Below the pieces are notes generated by a model. It saw only the letters and a list, made by a program, of their open reading frames with translations. It made no database searches and was not told the origin of the DNA. Position numbers and translations under genes: made by a program. DNA of 64,000 nucleotides from Elusimicrobiota bacterium (GTDB taxonomy: Bacteria; Elusimicrobiota; Elusimicrobia; UBA1565; UBA9628): assembly GCA_016212825.1 (NCBI GenBank), contig JACRDS010000013.1, positions 31,677-95,676 of the forward strand, in the 5' to 3' direction. Positions within the stretch are counted from its first letter, which is position 1. Each line of letters opens with the position of its first letter. Shown here one piece after another: positions 20,500-40,493 of the stretch.

Positions 20500-20515
20500 T
20501 GGCACTCCGATTGCT
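20500..20515 (+). promoter_or_regulatory. sigma-54 (-24/-12) promoter TGGCAC-N5-TTGCT
   Basis: TGGCACTCCGATTGCT has exact consensus spacing. It lies 50 nt upstream of the 38-aa ORF and next to the divergent bEBP gene. Confidence 0.65.
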
Positions 20516-24452: not shown

Positions 24453-25052
24453 ATGGCCTTTAAGAACACCGTTGCACCCGCCGTCGCCGTGCCCGCCTCA
24501 GAGAAGAACGCCGAGCTCGATCGGGAAGCCGCCGCAATCCTCGTCGACAGCCTGATCGAGGGCGCCGAGGAAGCCGTCCGCCAGGACTCCCACAGGGAGT
24601 TCTACGCCGCCAACCACAGCAAGGCCCTGGTCATCGCCCTCGCGGCGCTCAAGGACCGCTGCGAGGCTGAGGATGCCGTGGCGCAGACCTACGTGGAGCT
24701 CCTCAAGGGCCGCACCAGGCCCGCATGCTTCTTCCACGCGCTCAGGTGCAACATCCTCGACCGCAAACGCCGGCTGCGCCGCGAACAGTCTCTGTTTGAG
24801 CCGGCCGACCTAGCCTTCGATTCCAGGAACGCGTCCGGCGAGGACCGGCTGGCCGGGGGTGACAGCGAGGAGTTCGCGGCCGAGCCGGCGTCCCCGCAGC
24901 CGGAAGACCAGGACCCCTTGGCGATACTGGTCCAACGGGAGGAAGCCGCCGCGCGCCTTGCCATGGTGGAGCGCGCCATGGCCGACCCCCGGTGGCGGTA
25001 CGTCAAAGGCCGGAAGTGGGCGCGGCCGCTCGTCGGCGATGTGCGGAAATGA
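24453..25052 (+). CDS. hypothetical protein with sigma-70 region-2-like segment
   Basis: EFYAANHSKALVIALAALKDRCEAEDAVAQTYVELLKG resembles ECF sigma region 2. No clear region 4. First gene of the co-directional T4SS gene train. Confidence 0.45.
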   Translation: MAFKNTVAPAVAVPASEKNAELDREAAAILVDSLIEGAEEAVRQDSHREFYAANHSKALVIALAALKDRCEAEDAVAQTYVELLKGRTRPACFFHALRCNILDRKRRLRREQSLFEPADLAFDSRNASGEDRLAGGDSEEFAAEPASPQPEDQDPLAILVQREEAAARLAMVERAMADPRWRYVKGRKWARPLVGDVRK

Positions 25053-25166
25053 CGGGCTCAAGCGAATATTGTGTGCAGGGTGACTTTGCGGGCAGCCCGG
25101 TCGCCAGTCGGTGAAAACTCGGGGAGCAAATCCCCACCTGCCCGACAGAACGCAGGAGGTGGAAGA

Positions 25167-25709
25167 ATGGACCAGTCGGCGACGCGGACGTGCGGAAAGC
25201 CGGACATCGGGGATGGGGCGGGAAGGAAGCCGCGCTTCCTCAAGGTGCGGTTCTACCTGCCGCACCAGGACATGGTCAGCCTGGAGGAGGAGCGCCTCAG
25301 GCTCATCAAGGAGGGCCACGACGTGAGCCTCAGCAGGCTCATCTCCGAGGCCATCCGGCATCACATCCAGACCGGCCGGCGCCAAGCGGCGGGCGGCGCG
25401 GCCCTGGCCGCGCTGCTGGCCTTCGGCCTGTTGGCGCCGGGCCTGGCCGGGGCCCAGTCCTACGGCTCGCAGATCACGCAGGCAGGCCAGGCGCTCTACT
25501 CCTGGATCCGCAGCATCGGGGCCGTCATCCTGGCCATCGGCATCTCGGGGGCGGGTTTCCAGATGGCGGTGGCGCATGACCGGGAGGCCATGAAGAAGTT
25601 CTTCTACGTCATCCTGGGTGGGCTCATCGTGTTCCTGGCCCCTTCGTTCGTCTCCCTCATCCAGGGCGTGGCCGGTTCCGCGCAGTCGCTCAACATGTCG
25701 GGGCAGTGA
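25167..25709 (+). CDS. VirB2/TrbC-type pilin with N-terminal ribbon-helix-helix-like extension
   Basis: AGGAGG SD precedes the ATG at 25167. Residues ~25-68 fit an RHH pattern (KVRFYLP...VSLSRLISEAIRHHI). These are followed by the signal sequence ALAALLAFGLLAPGLAGA and two hydrophobic helices separated by AHDREAMKK, the VirB2 topology. Confidence 0.6.
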   Translation: MDQSATRTCGKPDIGDGAGRKPRFLKVRFYLPHQDMVSLEEERLRLIKEGHDVSLSRLISEAIRHHIQTGRRQAAGGAALAALLAFGLLAPGLAGAQSYGSQITQAGQALYSWIRSIGAVILAIGISGAGFQMAVAHDREAMKKFFYVILGGLIVFLAPSFVSLIQGVAGSAQSLNMSGQ

Positions 25710-25978
25710 GCGGGATGAACACCTACAAGGCGCTCGACTACCACCTCAAGACCTTCGGCTTCTGGCCTGGGGACTTGATCGGCACGTTCCTGGGCTTCTG
25801 CGTGGTCCACTGGGTCTTCAACAGCTTCCTGCTGGACCTGGTGGTAGTCGGGCCCTTGCTTTTCGCGGCGTTCAAGACGAGGAAGCGCGCTCCCGCCTAT
25901 GTCGGGTCGCTGTGGCGCTTCGCCACCACGGCCCGGCGCTTCAGCGTGGGGCTGGGCAGGGAGGGCTGCGGCCGATGA
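25706..25978 (+). CDS. VirB3/TrbD-like small membrane protein
   Basis: About 90 aa with a two-helix hydrophobic core. Its stop overlaps the VirB4 start (ATGA). The call rests on position and size. Confidence 0.55.
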   Translation: MSGMNTYKALDYHLKTFGFWPGDLIGTFLGFCVVHWVFNSFLLDLVVVGPLLFAAFKTRKRAPAYVGSLWRFATTARRFSVGLGREGCGR

Positions 25979-28425
25979 TTCTGCCTACCTTGACGCGCGA
26001 CTTGTTCCAGACCCGGCGCGAGCCCTGCGCGCACAACCTGCTCAACCTGTGGGCTCTGGAGGACGGAGCCTTGGTCGGCGTGGACCTGCAATACACCAAG
26101 CTCTTCAGGCTCACCTGTCCGGACGCCCTCTTCGCAAGCGAAGCGGAGCTGGAGCAGCACGCGGTGGCCCTCGGCCGCCTCCTTGACGGCCTGCCCGAGA
26201 ACTGCACGGCCCAGCTCATCGTCAGGGTGCGCTGGGACGCGGGCAGCAAGATCGAGGAGTACGCCTCCTACGAGCGGCCGGAGGGGGACATGCTGCGCTT
26301 CATCGTGGGCGCGAGGGTGGATTTCCTGCGGAAACTGCCGTTCAAGCGAGTGGAGCACTTCCTGGCCCTGAGCACCTATGCGGAGAAGACGGACCTCATG
26401 AAGCTGGGCCTGCGGCCCCTGGCGCTCAAGGTCCCGGACCTGGGCCGCGAGCTGGCCGGCCTGCATGAGCGCAGGATAGAGGGGCTCAGGAAAGTCTGCG
26501 CCACCGCCTCGGCCGCATTGCGCGACGCCAAGGTCGCGGCTTTGCCGCTCTCCGAGGCTGAGTCTTTGGCCTTCCTCTACGGCCGCCTCAATCCGGCCTT
26601 GGCCCAGCACACCCCGCCTCCGCCCCTGCGCAAGTCCGCGACCTTGCGCAGCCAGCTGGCGCTCAACGCCTGGGACTGCGGCTTCGACACCTTGACCGTG
26701 GACGGCCACCACCACCGGGCGGTCAACCTGGTGGTCAGGCCGGGCGGGCTCGACGGCCGGGCCATGGCCGCCTTGGCGGACCAGGTGCCGGGAGACTTCG
26801 ACCTGGTCATCGCCGTGCACAGCCTCTCGCAGGAGAAGGCGCAGCGCGAGGTGGAGTGGAACTCCACCTCGGCCGCGGTCATTGGCGGGCTGAGCATGTT
26901 CACACGCTACCACGAGGCCGACCTCAAGTGCGAGGACGCGGACGCCCTGCTGGCCCATGTGAAGTCCTCCTGCCAGAAGCTCTACCTCATGAGCTGCCAC
27001 CTGGTCCTGCGCGACGTGGACTTGAAGGCCCTGACGCGCAGCACGGACCAGGCCATCCAGGCCCTGCGCCGGCTCGACGACGCGGTGGGGGTGGTGGACG
27101 ACATGAACCACCTGCCGCTCTTCCTGGCGTCCTTGCCCGGCCATTCCCATCTCAATCCCCGCGCGCACCTGGTCCACACCGAGGCCGCGGCGCGCTTCCT
27201 GACCATGAGTTCGGGCTGGGACGGCTGTCCATGGCCGCAGTTCATGACCCCGGGAGACGACGGCAAGGCCTTGGGCATAGACCTCTTCTCCCCGGAGCTG
27301 ACCGCCAAGCACTCCCTCATCCTGGGGGTGTCCGGTGAGGGTAAGAGCGTGCTGACCAACTCGCTGCTGACCAGCTTCTTCAGCGCGGACGAGAGCCACA
27401 ACGTCATCGTCATAGACGACGGCGGCTCCTACAGGCGTCTGTGCGGCCTCTTGGGCGGGCAGTACCTTGAGCCCACCTTGGACGGCACCTACGCCTTCAA
27501 CCCCTTCCTGGCCCGCGAGTACGCCTTCGACGAAGCCGGCCGGCTCGACGCGGACTTCCTCTCCTTCATGACCTTGCTGGTCCAGCTCATGGTGCACAAG
27601 GCCGACCTGAGCAACAACCAGAAGTCCATCATCCAAAGGTGCGTGCTGGCGGCATACGAGAGCGGCAAGAGCCGGACCCCCATTCTGGCCGACCTGCGCG
27701 AAGCCTTCAGGGCCTTCCGGGGCGACGAGGAGGATGAGGCCCTGGCCCGGAGCTTCTACAAGGATCTGGACCTCTGGACCGAGGGCACCTACGGCCGGCT
27801 GCTCAACCGGCCGGGGACCTTCGACGCGGCCTCGCGCTTCATCGTCTTCGACCTCAACAAGATGACGCAGGAGGACCTCAAGCCCGTGCTCCTGCTCATT
27901 ATCAAGAGCGTCATCCATCCCAAGCTGGCGGACAAGAGCCTGCGCAAGGTGATCGCCTTGGACGAGGTGTGGAAGTTCCTGCGCGAGAAGGCCGGGGCCG
28001 ACCTGGCGGCCGAGTGGTACAAGACCGGCCGGCGCTTCAACGCCGCGGTCATGGTGGTCACCCAGTCGGCAGAGGACCTGCTGGCCAGCAAGGCGGCGGA
28101 GGCCATCACTCATAACTCCACGGTGAAGTGGATCCTCAACCTGGGCGGGGGCTACGAGAAGCTGGCGGACCTCAAGCTCTCGGCCGAAGAGATCGAGGCG
28201 GTCAAAAGCCTGGGCAAGAACGTGGACCGCTCGCGCTTCCGCAAGGTGTTCCTGCGCTTCGGCGAGCGCAAGGCCGTGATCCGCAACCAGCTCTCACCCA
28301 CCGAGTACTGGCTCTACACCACGGACCCCAACGACGTGAACCGGGAGGCCGCCCTGCGCGAGGCCCACCCGGAGTGGGGCGCGGTGGAGCTCCTGCGCGC
28401 TCTGGCCGGAGGGGCCCGTGCTTAG
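25975..28425 (+). CDS. virB4: type IV secretion ATPase VirB4/TrbE family
   Basis: 816 aa. Walker A GVSGEGKS, Walker B VIALDEVWKF, VVTQS motif, conserved N-terminal VirB4 architecture. Confidence 0.9.
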   Translation: MILPTLTRDLFQTRREPCAHNLLNLWALEDGALVGVDLQYTKLFRLTCPDALFASEAELEQHAVALGRLLDGLPENCTAQLIVRVRWDAGSKIEEYASYERPEGDMLRFIVGARVDFLRKLPFKRVEHFLALSTYAEKTDLMKLGLRPLALKVPDLGRELAGLHERRIEGLRKVCATASAALRDAKVAALPLSEAESLAFLYGRLNPALAQHTPPPPLRKSATLRSQLALNAWDCGFDTLTVDGHHHRAVNLVVRPGGLDGRAMAALADQVPGDFDLVIAVHSLSQEKAQREVEWNSTSAAVIGGLSMFTRYHEADLKCEDADALLAHVKSSCQKLYLMSCHLVLRDVDLKALTRSTDQAIQALRRLDDAVGVVDDMNHLPLFLASLPGHSHLNPRAHLVHTEAAARFLTMSSGWDGCPWPQFMTPGDDGKALGIDLFSPELTAKHSLILGVSGEGKSVLTNSLLTSFFSADESHNVIVIDDGGSYRRLCGLLGGQYLEPTLDGTYAFNPFLAREYAFDEAGRLDADFLSFMTLLVQLMVHKADLSNNQKSIIQRCVLAAYESGKSRTPILADLREAFRAFRGDEEDEALARSFYKDLDLWTEGTYGRLLNRPGTFDAASRFIVFDLNKMTQEDLKPVLLLIIKSVIHPKLADKSLRKVIALDEVWKFLREKAGADLAAEWYKTGRRFNAAVMVVTQSAEDLLASKAAEAITHNSTVKWILNLGGGYEKLADLKLSAEEIEAVKSLGKNVDRSRFRKVFLRFGERKAVIRNQLSPTEYWLYTTDPNDVNREAALREAHPEWGAVELLRALAGGARA

Positions 28426-35817: not shown

Positions 35818-36206
35818 GGCGCCATCATCCTGCCGTGCGCCGGGACGGCCCCTTGGAGGGGCTTCTGCGCTGCGGCGCGAGCCCTGAGCCGGCCCGGATG
35901 CCGGAGCAGGCCGAGTTCTGGCCCGCGGCTTCCGGCCCCGCAGGGGTGTACCGGCAGGAGAAACTGCTCCTGCGCGGCGACTACCTTGACGGCCTGGAGA
36001 GGGTGAGGCGGGACTTCGGCTTGAGAAAGGCTGAGTTCAGGAAGTCCTTGACCATTGGGGAGCTGGTGGACGCGGCAGTGGGCTTCATGCTCCGCCAGGT
36101 GGACTTCAGCACCCTGGAAAGCGCGGAGGACCTGGAGCGCCACGTTGCCAGGCAGGCCCTGCGCGGGACGCAGGCGAGCCTGGGCAGGTCGTGGCAGGAG
36201 GGATGA
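35814..36206 (+). CDS. hypothetical protein
   Basis: TTG at 35814 overlaps the previous stop, with an alternative ATG at 35899. Its stop overlaps the next ATG. No domain recognised. Confidence 0.35.
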   Translation: MRRHHPAVRRDGPLEGLLRCGASPEPARMPEQAEFWPAASGPAGVYRQEKLLLRGDYLDGLERVRRDFGLRKAEFRKSLTIGELVDAAVGFMLRQVDFSTLESAEDLERHVARQALRGTQASLGRSWQEG

Positions 36207-36889
36207 TGATGAGATACGCGGCGCTGTTCCTGCTTCTTGCACGGCCTGGAGCGGCCGAGGACCTGGTGGACCCCACGGCGCTCTTCAGCCAGGCGGCGCA
36301 GGCGGCCAAGCCTGCCGCGGCCGAGCGGCCGCCGGCCTGCCCGGGCGCGGACGACTTCTTCCTGCCCACGGGCTTCACCTTCCCGGCCCTGCTTCCCGAC
36401 GCCATCTTCAGCTACAACACCGCGGCCCCGGTCAACGCCGTGCTGGAAGACGACGTGAAGTCCCGCGGCCGCGTGATCCTGCCCAGGCACACGCGCCTCA
36501 TCGGCGGCGTCAACGCCCTGCACACGCTGGACCGGGTCAACATCGCCTGGCGCCTGGCGGTACTGCCCGAGGGGTGCGAGTTCGAGTTCTCGGGCATCGC
36601 CCTCTCGGCGGACGACGGCTCGGGAGGAGTGAAAGGCAAGGTGGAGAAGCATGAGGATTCGGTCGCGGCGCAGGTGGCCCTTAAGTCCATCCTCAACGGC
36701 GCACAGCAGGCCGCGGCCATAGCAGTCCCGGTCGAAGGCGCGCTGGCCTCCGGGTTCTCCGGCGAGGCCAACCTGATGCTCGACCAGAACATAGCCAAGG
36801 TCAAGAGCCTGGAGTCCATCTACATCCGCGAAAGGACGCAGATCCGCGTCTTGGTCATGAGGAGGTTCGCCCGAGATGGCGGAAAATGA
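36203..36889 (+). CDS. VirB10/TrbI-like protein (short form)
   Basis: Signal-like N-terminus. The core VLEDDVKSRGRVILPRHTRLIGG...RVNIAWRLAVLPEG...DDGSGGVKGKVEKH follows the TrbI/VirB10 C-terminal domain pattern. It lacks the usual long Pro-rich N-terminal region. Confidence 0.6.
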   Translation: MMMRYAALFLLLARPGAAEDLVDPTALFSQAAQAAKPAAAERPPACPGADDFFLPTGFTFPALLPDAIFSYNTAAPVNAVLEDDVKSRGRVILPRHTRLIGGVNALHTLDRVNIAWRLAVLPEGCEFEFSGIALSADDGSGGVKGKVEKHEDSVAAQVALKSILNGAQQAAAIAVPVEGALASGFSGEANLMLDQNIAKVKSLESIYIRERTQIRVLVMRRFARDGGK

Positions 36890-38765
36890 ATCCTCGCCCT
36901 GCGGCTGGGAGTTCGTGCTCATGGTCGCTCTGATAGGCATGGCCTTGCAGAAGAACGCGCCGGCCATGGAGCGCCGGCTCGTGGCCTGGGAGGTGGCGCC
37001 TGTCACCGCGGCCGGGGTCGCGGCCCGCGCGGCCTATCGCCGGCTGGGGCAAGGGGCGACCCTCGGCAAGAAGGCATGCCTCAACGTCGCGGTCAACCTC
37101 TTTGCGAAGTCGGCCAATCCGCTTCGTCCTGGCGTGGGCTGGTTCGGGTTGTTGTCGCTCGGAGTCTTTCTCTGCCCCTTGGCGGCGCGCCGCATGGGCT
37201 CGTTGCGTTATTGGAACACCGAGTGGCTCGCAGCCGCGGTGCTGGTCACGGGGGCAGGCGCGTGTTTCGGGTTGGCCATGCCCGCTGCCTGGCCCTGGCC
37301 GGTGCTCTGGGTGGGCGGCGTGTGGGCCTTCGCCAACACAGGGGCCGCCCTCTTCTGCCTATGCCTGGCAATCTGGTCCTTCCATAAGGGTTCGAAGCGT
37401 CTCCACCATGGTCCGGCATTCAAACTGCCCATGATGTCGAAGCCATGCTCCGGCTTCACCGTGGGCCGCGTGGACCCGAAGATCATGCCCGGCCACTCCC
37501 GGTGGCTGGCCTCAGGTGGAGGCGACATCCAACTCCCTTTCAACCGCCTTTCCTGCGGCCTGACCGTGCTGGGAGAGAAGGGCGCCGGGAAGTCTCGGCT
37601 GCTTTTCGCCATACACGATGCCATCAGGAGGCAGCATCCGAACGTCCCCATCCTCATCCACGACCCCAAGAGCGAATGGTACCGGACCTACTACGACCCC
37701 AAGGCGGACCTGTTCTTCGCCCCGCACTTCAAGGGCACCGCGGCCTGGAGCCTGTGGCGGGATTTCAGGGAGGTGCCGGAGCTGCGCCACGAACTGCTTT
37801 CGACCTGCGTCTACGCCCACCAGGACCGGGATGATACCTTCTGGATGGACCAGGCCGTGGACCTCCTGCACCAGGTCTCGGGTTTCAAGACTCTCTCCAA
37901 AGCTGCGGATTATCTGGGAGACATCCCGCACCAGCACCCGGACGACGAGTTCCTCTTGTCGGTCTTCGGCACCGCAAAGCTCGGCTTCCTGGATCTGGCC
38001 AAGACCGAGCTGATGTCCGCCATCTCGGGGGCCCGGCCGCTGTCCATTGACGATTTCCTCCGGCAGAAGGGCCGCATCATCCTGCTCAACAACCCCTCCT
38101 GCGCATCCGAACAGAAGGGGGCTTTCAGCCTGTTTTTGTCCGCATTCCTGCTGAGGGCGCTTTCGCTGCCGGACGTGCCGGAGGGCACCCTGCGCGCTGT
38201 CGCCATCATCGACGAGGCGCTGACCTTCAACCTGCCCCCGGACGTGGAGAGGCGCATCTCGACGCTGTGCCGGTCCAAGGGCGTCTGCGTCGTGGCCGGC
38301 GCCCAGCGCCTGCCGGACCGCCAGCGCAACGAACGCGGCGAATGGCGCACCGCGGAGCACACCTTCGCCATGAAATGCGTGAACCAGGACACGCAACGCG
38401 AGCTGTCCAGGAAGGCCGGCAGCCTGCTGTTCCGACGCATGGCCCAGAGCACGACCACTTCGGCCTCGGAGCGCGCGGCCGGGCAGTCTCATACCAGGAG
38501 CGAGCAGGACCTCAGCCAGGAGGCCATCCCGCCGGAGCACTTCGGAAGGCTGTCGCCCCGCGAGTTCGTCTTGTTCCACGACCAGGGCATCGTGACCGGC
38601 AGGACCGTGGAGGTGGGGCGCGAGCAGCGCGCCGTCGCCCTGCCGCCGTACGAGCTGCGCGAGGACGTGCGCCGGATATCTATGGGGCTGATCGCCGACA
38701 TGCCTGCGCAGAAGGAGGACGAAAAAGAAGACGGAAAGGAGGATGGAGAAGATGAGCGTGATTGA
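36876..38765 (+). CDS. virD4: type IV coupling protein (VirD4/TraG/TraD family)
   Basis: N-terminal TM helices, Walker A GEKGAGKS, Walker B AIIDEALTF, acidic KEDEKEDGKEDGEDE tail. Confidence 0.85.
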   Translation: MAENESSPCGWEFVLMVALIGMALQKNAPAMERRLVAWEVAPVTAAGVAARAAYRRLGQGATLGKKACLNVAVNLFAKSANPLRPGVGWFGLLSLGVFLCPLAARRMGSLRYWNTEWLAAAVLVTGAGACFGLAMPAAWPWPVLWVGGVWAFANTGAALFCLCLAIWSFHKGSKRLHHGPAFKLPMMSKPCSGFTVGRVDPKIMPGHSRWLASGGGDIQLPFNRLSCGLTVLGEKGAGKSRLLFAIHDAIRRQHPNVPILIHDPKSEWYRTYYDPKADLFFAPHFKGTAAWSLWRDFREVPELRHELLSTCVYAHQDRDDTFWMDQAVDLLHQVSGFKTLSKAADYLGDIPHQHPDDEFLLSVFGTAKLGFLDLAKTELMSAISGARPLSIDDFLRQKGRIILLNNPSCASEQKGAFSLFLSAFLLRALSLPDVPEGTLRAVAIIDEALTFNLPPDVERRISTLCRSKGVCVVAGAQRLPDRQRNERGEWRTAEHTFAMKCVNQDTQRELSRKAGSLLFRRMAQSTTTSASERAAGQSHTRSEQDLSQEAIPPEHFGRLSPREFVLFHDQGIVTGRTVEVGREQRAVALPPYELREDVRRISMGLIADMPAQKEDEKEDGKEDGEDERD

Positions 38766-39350: not shown

Positions 39351-40493
39351 ATGGGACTGGTGAAGAAGGGCGAGAACTGGTTTATAGACTACCGCGCCAA
39401 CGGGCGGCGCATCCGGGAGAAGGTCGGCCCGAGCAGGAAGCTGGCCGAATCGGCGCTGGCCAAGCGGAGGCTGGAACTCGCGGAGAACAGGTTCCTGGAC
39501 GTCCGCAAGGCCAGCCGGGAGACCTTCCAGAGCTTCGCCGAGAAGTACCTGGAGTGGGTCCAGGGGCGCATCCGCTCGATCGCCAACGAGCGCATCTACG
39601 TGCGGCGGCTCAACGCGACCTTCGGCGGCACCTGCCTCTCGGATATAGACGTGGCCCGCGTCGAGAAGTTCATGGCGCAGAGGCTCAAGGAGCCGCGCCA
39701 GCATCCATATCGCGGGAAATCCGCATGGAAGCTCGACGCGGTCGAGCGCGAGGCGAAGATTAAGGCGTGGTACGCGGGGAACGGAAAGACGATCTCAAGG
39801 GCGCACGTGAATCGCGAGGTCTCCTGCCTCCGGCGCATCCTTAATAAGGCGGCGGACTGGAAACTGCTGCCGGCGCGTCCGCTCGGGGGGCTCAGGCTGT
39901 TCGATGAGCGAGAGTCGATACGCAAGCGCTATCTGAAGCCCGAGGAGATCCGGACCCTGCTTGCCGCCTGCGGCCCGGGCCTCAGGCAGGTCGTGACCTT
40001 CGCCCTCTACACCGGCCGCAGGTACGGCGAGATATCCGGAATGCGGTGGCAGGACGTGGACGTCGAGAACGGATACGTGTACTTCCCGAGGACCAAGAAG
40101 AAGGAGCCGGACCAGGTGGCTCTGCCGCCGCGGGCGCGTGAGGTCCTGGCGGAGTTGCGCCGCGATGCGAACGGCGATTTCGTCTTTCATAAGAAAGACG
40201 GCGGGCAGCTGCGGGTCGTGCGGTCGGGCTTCAAGAGGGCCCTGCGCAGGGCGGGAATCGCGAATTTCAGGTTCCATGATTTGCGGCATACGGCCATATC
40301 TTATATGATGATGAACGGCATCGATTTGAAGACCATCGCCGAGCTCGTGGGCCATGCGACGGCTCAAATGGTGGACAAGCGCTACGGCCATCTTTCGCCG
40401 GACCACAAGCGCGCCGCCGCGGAGGTTTACGGTTCGGCGATGGACAGGTTGTGCGGGCATGGGCAAGTCCCCTCTCAAGCCGGGGCGGCCTGA
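39351..40493 (+). CDS. int: tyrosine recombinase / integrase
   Basis: N-terminal SAM-like domain. Catalytic region with R...HDLRHTAISYMMMNG...GHAT...Y (RFHDLRH, RYGHL). Confidence 0.9.
   Translation: MGLVKKGENWFIDYRANGRRIREKVGPSRKLAESALAKRRLELAENRFLDVRKASRETFQSFAEKYLEWVQGRIRSIANERIYVRRLNATFGGTCLSDIDVARVEKFMAQRLKEPRQHPYRGKSAWKLDAVEREAKIKAWYAGNGKTISRAHVNREVSCLRRILNKAADWKLLPARPLGGLRLFDERESIRKRYLKPEEIRTLLAACGPGLRQVVTFALYTGRRYGEISGMRWQDVDVENGYVYFPRTKKKEPDQVALPPRAREVLAELRRDANGDFVFHKKDGGQLRVVRSGFKRALRRAGIANFRFHDLRHTAISYMMMNGIDLKTIAELVGHATAQMVDKRYGHLSPDHKRAAAEVYGSAMDRLCGHGQVPSQAGAA

Follow-up and report, generated by a model that had tools for sequence, protein, structure and literature searches.

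How a pilin of a conjugative apparatus came to be encoded in one reading frame with a domain resembling a DNA-binding protein, and whether that domain is still kept by selection, are the questions raised by a gene of an Elusimicrobiota bacterium. The gene lies at positions 25167-25709 (+ strand) of a 64,000-nucleotide stretch (NCBI GenBank assembly GCA_016212825.1, contig JACRDS010000013.1, positions 31,677 to 95,676 of the forward strand), the whole of which is called the window here, and belongs to a conjugation-type type IV secretion system (T4SS) gene train on an integrative element. Its product joins a ribbon-helix-helix (RHH)-like domain to a VirB2/TrbC-type prepilin, and this in-frame fusion, proposed by an initial annotation made from the DNA letters alone, was found to be real, with a junction common to three diverged lineages. 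The fusion is best read as specific to a lineage, formed when a deletion joined an RHH-like gene to the pilin gene, and maintained by selection; from the sequence comparisons described below, this reading was given a probability of about 0.6.

The fused open reading frame (ORF) encodes 180 amino acids (aa) and is open throughout up to a TGA stop at 25707-25709. Its ATG (25167-25169) is preceded by the strong Shine-Dalgarno (SD) sequence that had been reported for it, AGGAGGT at 25154-25160 with a spacer of 6 nt, within the DNA of positions 25140-25170 (...ACGCAGGAGGTGGAAGAATG). The same SD and spacing, which with the ATG occupy 25154-25169 of the + strand, were found before the fused genes of two other contigs, L001 and L007, and before the separate RHH-like gene of contig L005. 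The product begins with a variable and probably disordered tail (residues 1-21, 25167-25229), for which the predicted local distance difference test score (pLDDT) of an AlphaFold2 (AF2) model was below 50 in residues 1-17. This is followed by the RHH-like core (residues 22-68, 25230-25370), delimited by the AF2 model, by homology to free-standing proteins and by sub-threshold RHH matches. The segment TGRRQAA (residues 69-75, 25371-25391), placed by alignment of fused and split loci at the DNA and protein levels, contains the point of fusion as well as the leader's positively charged n-region. The h-region with its A-G-A cleavage motif (residues 76-96, 25392-25454; Kyte-Doolittle peak 2.09) and the mature 84-aa pilin with two hydrophobic helices (residues 97-180 and the stop, 25455-25709) complete the ORF, all on the + strand.

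The pilin half was recognized as a bona fide prepilin, in agreement with the VirB2/TrbC-type body proposed earlier. In Pfam, TrbC/VirB2 (PF04956) scored 43.6 bits over residues 78-165 (cut-off 27.9; E 3.6e-11), and T4SS_pilin (PF18895) was also above its cut-off (28.3 vs 26.6). Hydropathy analysis revealed hydrophobic segments at residues 76-95, 111-135 and 141-170, the last two being the first and second pilin helices, separated by the loop HDREAMKK, so that the overall layout is that of a canonical prepilin. The first segment, which had been described as a signal-like stretch ending in AGA-QS, was confirmed by hydropathy: two conserved arginines stand before it, A-G-A followed by Q-S stands at its end, and an A-x-A motif followed by Q (or Y) was kept in all ten homologues compared. 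Given the arginine pair and the conserved cleavage site, insertion with the N-terminus inside (N-in) and a cut by signal peptidase I after Ala96, between 25454 and 25455, are predicted. The mature pilin is 85–86% identical to those of the prepilins P0005 and P0006, which have their own start codons. In the source genome (186 contigs, 86% complete), ORF 25167-25709 was the only TrbC-family pilin above cut-off and also the only member of the RHH-like family, no second copy of either half that could complement the fusion being detected; the same genome encodes two S26 signal peptidases and one M50 site-2 protease.

The N-terminal domain of the fusion is, in our judgement, quite likely to adopt the RHH fold. 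Residues 22-68 follow the expected pattern, in which the alternating strand R-F-L-K-V-R-F-Y-L leads into two helices separated by a G-x-D-x-S turn, the elements being a strand at residues 23-31, helix A at 33-48, the turn G50-x-D52-x-S54 and helix B from 55 to about 70. The RHH signature following the strand reads G50-H-D52-V-S54-L-S56-R57, of which G50, D52, S54 and R57 were invariant in the family alignment. The AF2 model, built with 12 sequences, gave an extended stretch at 22-32 and helices at 33-48 and 55-7x with core pLDDT values of 87-96, as a monomer, in which the ribbon strand cannot pair. RHH_1, RHH_3 or RHH_6 matched 8 of the 26 family members, always at helix B and in register, with a best score of 20.4 bits against a cut-off of 21.6. 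The best Protein Data Bank (PDB) match of a narrow profile was a CopG-family RHH chain (E 0.12), and the matches in PHROGs were annotated as “transcriptional repressor” and “Arc-like repressor”. With hhalign, an in-register alignment was obtained with CopG (P 0.008, using a CopG sequence entered by hand) and no match with Arc. The earlier claim of an N-terminal RHH domain therefore stands as to the pattern, the conserved family and the confident strand-helix-helix model, whereas the fold and hidden Markov model (HMM) searches stayed below significance. An RHH-like domain of this kind would probably be a dimeric DNA binder. The family is narrow, with 20 clusters found by profile search among 1.84 billion representatives, and scans of Pfam and NCBIfam gave no match to TraY (PF05509) or to any other named accessory family.

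A search of 5.8 billion proteins returned only seven relatives of the fused ORF. Two of them, P0002 and P0003, were full-length fusions, so that the architecture was recovered from homologous T4SS loci in L001 and in L007-L009. P0002 (180 aa, 89% identical) is encoded on the 127-kb JGI contig L001 with the gene order of the window, and P0003 (165 aa, 87% identical) on groundwater contigs L007-L009 from ENA. A search with the junction region retrieved only the type found in the window, L001 and L007-L009, in three clusters at 90% identity, and protein and alignment scans of genome and metagenome contig collections yielded no further relatives. Next in similarity come P0005 and P0006, ordinary prepilins of 114-115 aa, each of which starts at an ATG of its own and has a leader of 31 aa. 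In L005 a separate 92-aa RHH-like gene (99-377) is followed after 8 nt by the pilin ATG at 386; L010 is arranged alike, and the two-gene layout is also present on the 47-kb contig L011. Clear homology links the 92-aa product (...RYLKVQLFLAHRDVVLLEEARLKLVKQGQDVSRNRLIAEAIRRYLADGGQSKTKVRG) to residues 22-70 of the window's protein, and the N-terminal part of the fusion is homologous to free-standing proteins of 84-99 aa that head this T4SS gene train. In more distant relatives the RHH gene still heads the train, at 8-10 kb from the pilin gene. Since the nearest relatives carry the RHH-like and pilin genes separately, two genes are taken as the ancestral state. The notion of a prepilin leader that is itself a folded domain by ancestry was consequently not borne out: as the split homologues in L005, L010 and L011 indicate, an adjacent gene was captured by deletion.

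The junction G-R-R-(Q/P)-A-A-G is common to the window, L001 and L007. When the junction DNA of fused and split forms was aligned, the fused form was found to lack the codons of a GGQSKTKVRG tail, the stop codon, the spacer, the AGGGGG SD of the pilin gene with its ATG, and some 12 codons of the pilin leader; the net deletion is about 55 nt, of which the lost spacer accounts for 8 nt, and the frame is restored. With the SD and start of the pilin deleted, only in-frame joins keep the pilin expressed, which would explain why the survivors are in frame. In the free-standing RHH proteins the C-terminal K-x-K-V-R-G overlaps the ribosome-binding site of the pilin gene, the R-G codons being AGGGGG (L005:350-388, L010 and L011:8250-8290), and conservation of this tail may in part be at the RNA level; the overlap is lost in the fusions. 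Contig L004, which encodes a pilin (P0004) that is 97% identical, has an ATG where the window encodes residue 79 (GCC to ATG), and the contig breaks off only 2 nt ahead of that codon; this could be a lineage in which a start was regained inside the fused leader, or an error at the contig end. It was considered as a fourth fused lineage and set aside, the contig end leaving fused and split arrangements undecidable.

Other joins were found in a sister clade of pilins, and three rearranged forms, P0020, P0034 and P0031, were among the 20 clusters of the N-terminal family. P0020 (191 aa; L024:238-813, from one contig of 1.35 kb) is another case in which RHH and pilin are fused, here with RRYV joined to WVLDHK..., and its pilin is about 40% identical to that of the window and 83% identical to that of L011. 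In P0034 (134 aa; L025:282-686, L026 and L027, from three samples) the first 28 residues of the RHH protein are joined to the pilin leader and the RHH domain is deleted, while P0031 (50 aa) has an internal RHH deletion between two R-Y-L repeats. P0019, from the sister lineage, is a 127-aa frameshift-like variant. Judged from their sequences, the joins in P0020 and P0034 are independent of the fusion in the window. Taken at the level of the predicted proteins, the joins also show that the pilin leader can accommodate between 28 and 80 extra residues at its N-terminus.

Maintenance by selection was assessed from the three fused genes of the window, L001 and L007, which differ at many synonymous sites (synonymous divergence, dS, of about 0.2-0.45). 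The ratio of nonsynonymous to synonymous divergence (dN/dS, ω) was 0.07-0.10 in the mature pilin, 0.09-0.39 in the linker plus signal segment, and 0.30-0.41 in the RHH-like core of the fused clade, compared with 0.29-0.74 in the free-standing genes. As the core ω of the fused clade is no higher than that of the free-standing genes, no sign of relaxed selection on the core was seen. One-sided Fisher tests for ω<1 in the core gave p values of 0.026, 0.065 and 0.025, from pairs that are not independent and that hold 12-24 substitutions each, a small basis for tests of selection. All nine invariant columns of the family were retained in the fused proteins, and the core substitutions were conservative (F/L, V/L, I/V, M/L). 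The substitution patterns indicate that both halves are under purifying selection.

Besides the small number of substitutions, several observations weigh against a selected fusion with an RHH domain. Loss of the RHH part is tolerated in other lineages, as P0034 and P0031 demonstrate, and the fused RHH could be on its way out. The core evolves about four times faster than the pilin, the first 21 codons look neutral (dN/dS about 1.26 against L001), the N-terminal tail is 13-28 residues shorter than in the free-standing homologues, and their conserved C-terminal K-x-x-x-R-G tail is missing from the fusions. As to the fold, the first 77 residues of the window's protein had no Pfam or NCBIfam match, and no curated threshold was reached by its own RHH-like sequence. 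Foldseek comparison of two AF2 models with the PDB gave no significant match (E >1), the top ranks at that level including the RHH proteins ParB of pCXC100, ParD and the DNA-binding domain of TraM, and a PDB search with the broader alignment A3 returned noise, mainly Hsp90 fragments. The predicted cleavage and topology rest on hydropathy and the -3/-1 rule. In an alternative reading, the RHH part is a neutral relic, inert and slowly decaying, carried along since the leader tolerates it and since its SD and start drive the pilin. Its tolerated loss in P0034 and P0031, the neutral and shortened N-terminal tail, the missing C-terminal tail and a core ω far above that of the pilin all favour such a relic. 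Nevertheless, the core ω lies below 1 (p about 0.03) and within the range of the free-standing genes, every invariant family residue is kept, and the source genome has no other RHH copy to supply the function; a relic was on balance considered unlikely, and a fused domain kept by selection was preferred.

Less probable still is internal initiation, by which the pilin would be made mainly from a GTG at codon 53 as a 128-aa prepilin with a 44-aa leader, the full-length protein being a minor product. A perfect AGGAGG (25309-25314) stands 8 nt before this GTG (25323-25325), so that 25309-25325 of the + strand is a possible secondary start; the SD-like motif, formed by K-E-G codons, is common to the three fused genes, the split genes having K-Q-G, and a leader of 44 aa is comparable in length to known ones, that of F TraA having 51 aa (PMC7555446). 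However, codon 53 is ATC, a very poor start, in L001 and L007, so the route is not conserved; the exchange of GTG with GTC or ATC may be plain synonymous or conservative variation; and the upstream ATG has an equally strong SD, from which the full-length protein would be made anyway. The assertion of the initial annotation that no ATG, GTG or early TTG is in frame between the RHH and pilin parts was accurate between residue 54 and the h-region, with the correction that codon 53, at the start of helix B, is a GTG. As candidates for a separate pilin start, the first in-frame TTG, which lies inside the h-region, and CTG codons, which lack an SD, were rejected. The aligned sequences indicate that there is no conserved internal start for a separate pilin, and because ATG 25167 is the only conserved start, the pilin would have to come from the 180-aa precursor.

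An assembly or sequencing artefact, by which a frameshift or mis-join merged two genes, is very improbable: the nearest relatives do have two genes, an outcome that the initial annotation had named as refuting, and the source assembly is fragmented, but the same junction recurs in independent assemblies of different samples (JGI and ENA groundwater) at 87–89% identity, the fused and split forms differ by the deletion of a stop, spacer, SD and start and not by a one-base slip, and both halves have been under purifying selection since the lineages diverged; together these points exclude a sequencing frameshift.

A working scheme for the selected fusion can be proposed. The whole precursor would be translated from the strong SD and ATG 25167, and the RHH-like domain would remain cytoplasmic, forming a much expanded n-region of the prepilin leader. 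The hydrophobic segment 76-96, flanked by the two arginines, would insert N-in, and the host signal peptidase I would then cut after A94-G-A96, making a pilin of the usual kind, 84 aa long, available for the pilus. What remains would be a 96-residue membrane-tethered leader fragment with the RHH domain facing the cytoplasm; there the domain could work close to the membrane, or signal-peptide proteolysis could set it free. Fusions of this kind may survive because a cleavable N-in leader tolerates cytoplasmic additions at its N-terminus. Since the clearance of liberated signal peptides is a task of site-2 proteases such as RseP, release of the RHH domain is conceivable. As a further and rather doubtful possibility, the fusion could be a coupling device, along the lines of the link between pilin processing and transcription that the initial annotation had raised: the RHH domain would be made in stoichiometric amounts with the prepilin, held at the membrane and rendered active on DNA only after successive cuts by signal peptidase and by a signal-peptide or site-2 protease, with a conserved non-coding element at 25084-25148 or an origin of transfer (oriT) as its target, so that gene expression or relaxosome assembly would report pilin insertion. 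If true, a pilin leader would in effect have been made into a system of regulated intramembrane proteolysis.

The conserved element, of about 65 nt, lies upstream of the fused gene (25084-25148, + strand) and has 44 invariant columns across six loci. Its sequence, CTTTGCGGGCAGCC.GGT.GCCAGTC...GGGGAGC..ATCCCCACCTGCCCG.CA, is near-invariant in these loci, even in a relative with an RHH protein of only about 45% identity. RNAalifold predicted three stems, in the small one of which two pairs covary (CG/UA/GC), and no Rfam match to the element was obtained. Its role could be that of an operator, of a promoter (for the adjacent sigma-like protein) or of a structured 5' leader, and the element is a candidate target of the RHH-like domain.

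The gene for that sigma-like protein (24453-25052, + strand) encodes 199 aa that weakly resemble sigma-70 region 2 (best NCBIfam E 3.7e-4) and is also present in L001. Its orthologue in the same-order genome G040 (L013:591-1292; Pfam Sigma70_r2, E 0.042) directly precedes the RHH gene. A sigma-like protein of 199-233 aa was observed always to precede the RHH-like gene, even where the pilin gene is 8-10 kb away, and the sigma-like and RHH-like pair looks like a conserved regulatory module of the element family. In G040 (L013:1931-2809) two ORFs, of 78 and 292 aa, come after the RHH gene; the longer one has a weak Replic_Relax match (E 0.16), and no homologue of it was found in the source genome. 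It may bear on the missing relaxase of the element family, as a possible partner of the RHH protein.

Downstream of the fused gene, an 87-aa gene in the VirB3/TraL position (25715-25978, + strand) is of 87-90 aa in every related locus and has no Pfam match. It is followed by a VirB4/TraC-type ATPase of 817 aa (25972-28425, + strand; Pfam P-loop_TraG at E 1.2e-41, TraC_F_IV and AAA_10). Further along, Pfam identified TrbI/VirB10 (36191-36889), a coupling protein (36876-38765) and a tyrosine integrase (39351-40493). The T4SS gene order is conserved in L001, L002 and L011. Promoters of the sigma-54 type were located at 20500 and 23575 in the window. The distant relative represented by L002 and L003 has no RHH-like gene before its pilin, which is instead preceded by a perfect promoter (TGGCAC-N5-TTGC); this sigma-54 promoter (L002:2880-2976, L003:5915-6003) is accompanied by a divergent NtrC-type activator, and the element has, in addition, an rpoN-like gene of its own (Sigma54_DBD) and one encoding a SET domain.

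Unusually long leaders, with no clear role other than targeting, are a familiar feature of conjugative prepilins, and the one described here has absorbed a whole domain, probably DNA-binding and kept by selection. It offers a naturally occurring case for testing how large a cytoplasmic cargo can be borne by a VirB2-type leader, and a candidate for feedback between pilin insertion and the control of transfer genes. It is also an example of how new domain architectures can arise on mobile elements, through deletion where neighbouring genes are closely packed and subsequent selection for in-frame survivors. Should the RHH part be inert, it would be merely a tolerated gene fusion in a rare environmental family of integrative and conjugative elements.

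Among the known systems, conjugative pilins are made with cleaved leaders, that of F TraA being 51 aa long and cut by LepB (PMC7555446; PMC11722321). The fusion resembles the TrbC/VirB2/TraA prepilins (RP4 TrbC, Agrobacterium VirB2 and F TraA) in its two-helix PF04956 body, its cleavable A-x-A leader and the position of its gene directly before VirB3- and VirB4-type genes, and an unusually long leader is a trait of that family. It differs in that the leader, of 96 residues, is about twice as long as the longest classic ones and holds a predicted folded domain homologous to the product of a separate gene. We are aware of no prepilin leader on record that includes a folded or DNA-binding domain, and full-text literature searches for an RHH-pilin or TraY-TraA fusion returned nothing relevant.

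Relaxosome accessory proteins are mostly of the RHH type (PMC12857230), and TraY is one of these RHH proteins (PMC7555446). The split relatives are similar to F traY-traA in that a small RHH-like gene at the head of the operon is followed by the pilin, a gene in the TraL/VirB3 position and a TraC-type VirB4; in contrast, the RHH-like protein has no detectable homology to TraY, and in distant relatives its gene is displaced from that of the pilin by several kilobases; neither an oriT nor a relaxase was recognized in the element of the window. TraY, moreover, has tandem RHH repeats, and we know of no case in which it is fused to TraA. With the CopG/Arc/MetJ superfamily (RHH_1, RHH_3 and RHH_6) the N-terminal domain shares, in sequence and predicted structure, the alternating strand, helix A, the G-x-x-x-S turn, an N-capped helix B and a core of about 45 residues, and its weak HMM, PDB and PHROG matches are in the correct register. 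The differences are that all of these matches lie below the curated cut-off and that a signal or transmembrane segment follows the domain here, whereas in the superfamily the protein ends or continues into a soluble domain.

Membrane-tethered regulators and signals derived from signal peptides are represented by RseA/RseP-type proteolysis and by the enterococcal sex pheromones, which are cut from lipoprotein signal peptides by Eep. As in the RseA/RseP-type systems, the cytoplasmic domain predicted to remain after cleavage would sit on a single N-in hydrophobic segment, the type of substrate taken by site-2 proteases, and the host has an M50 protease; the tether here, however, is the signal peptide of a structural protein and not a dedicated anti-sigma factor or sensor. 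Set against all of these systems, the component families of the fusion are known ones, while its architecture and the maintenance of that architecture are new.

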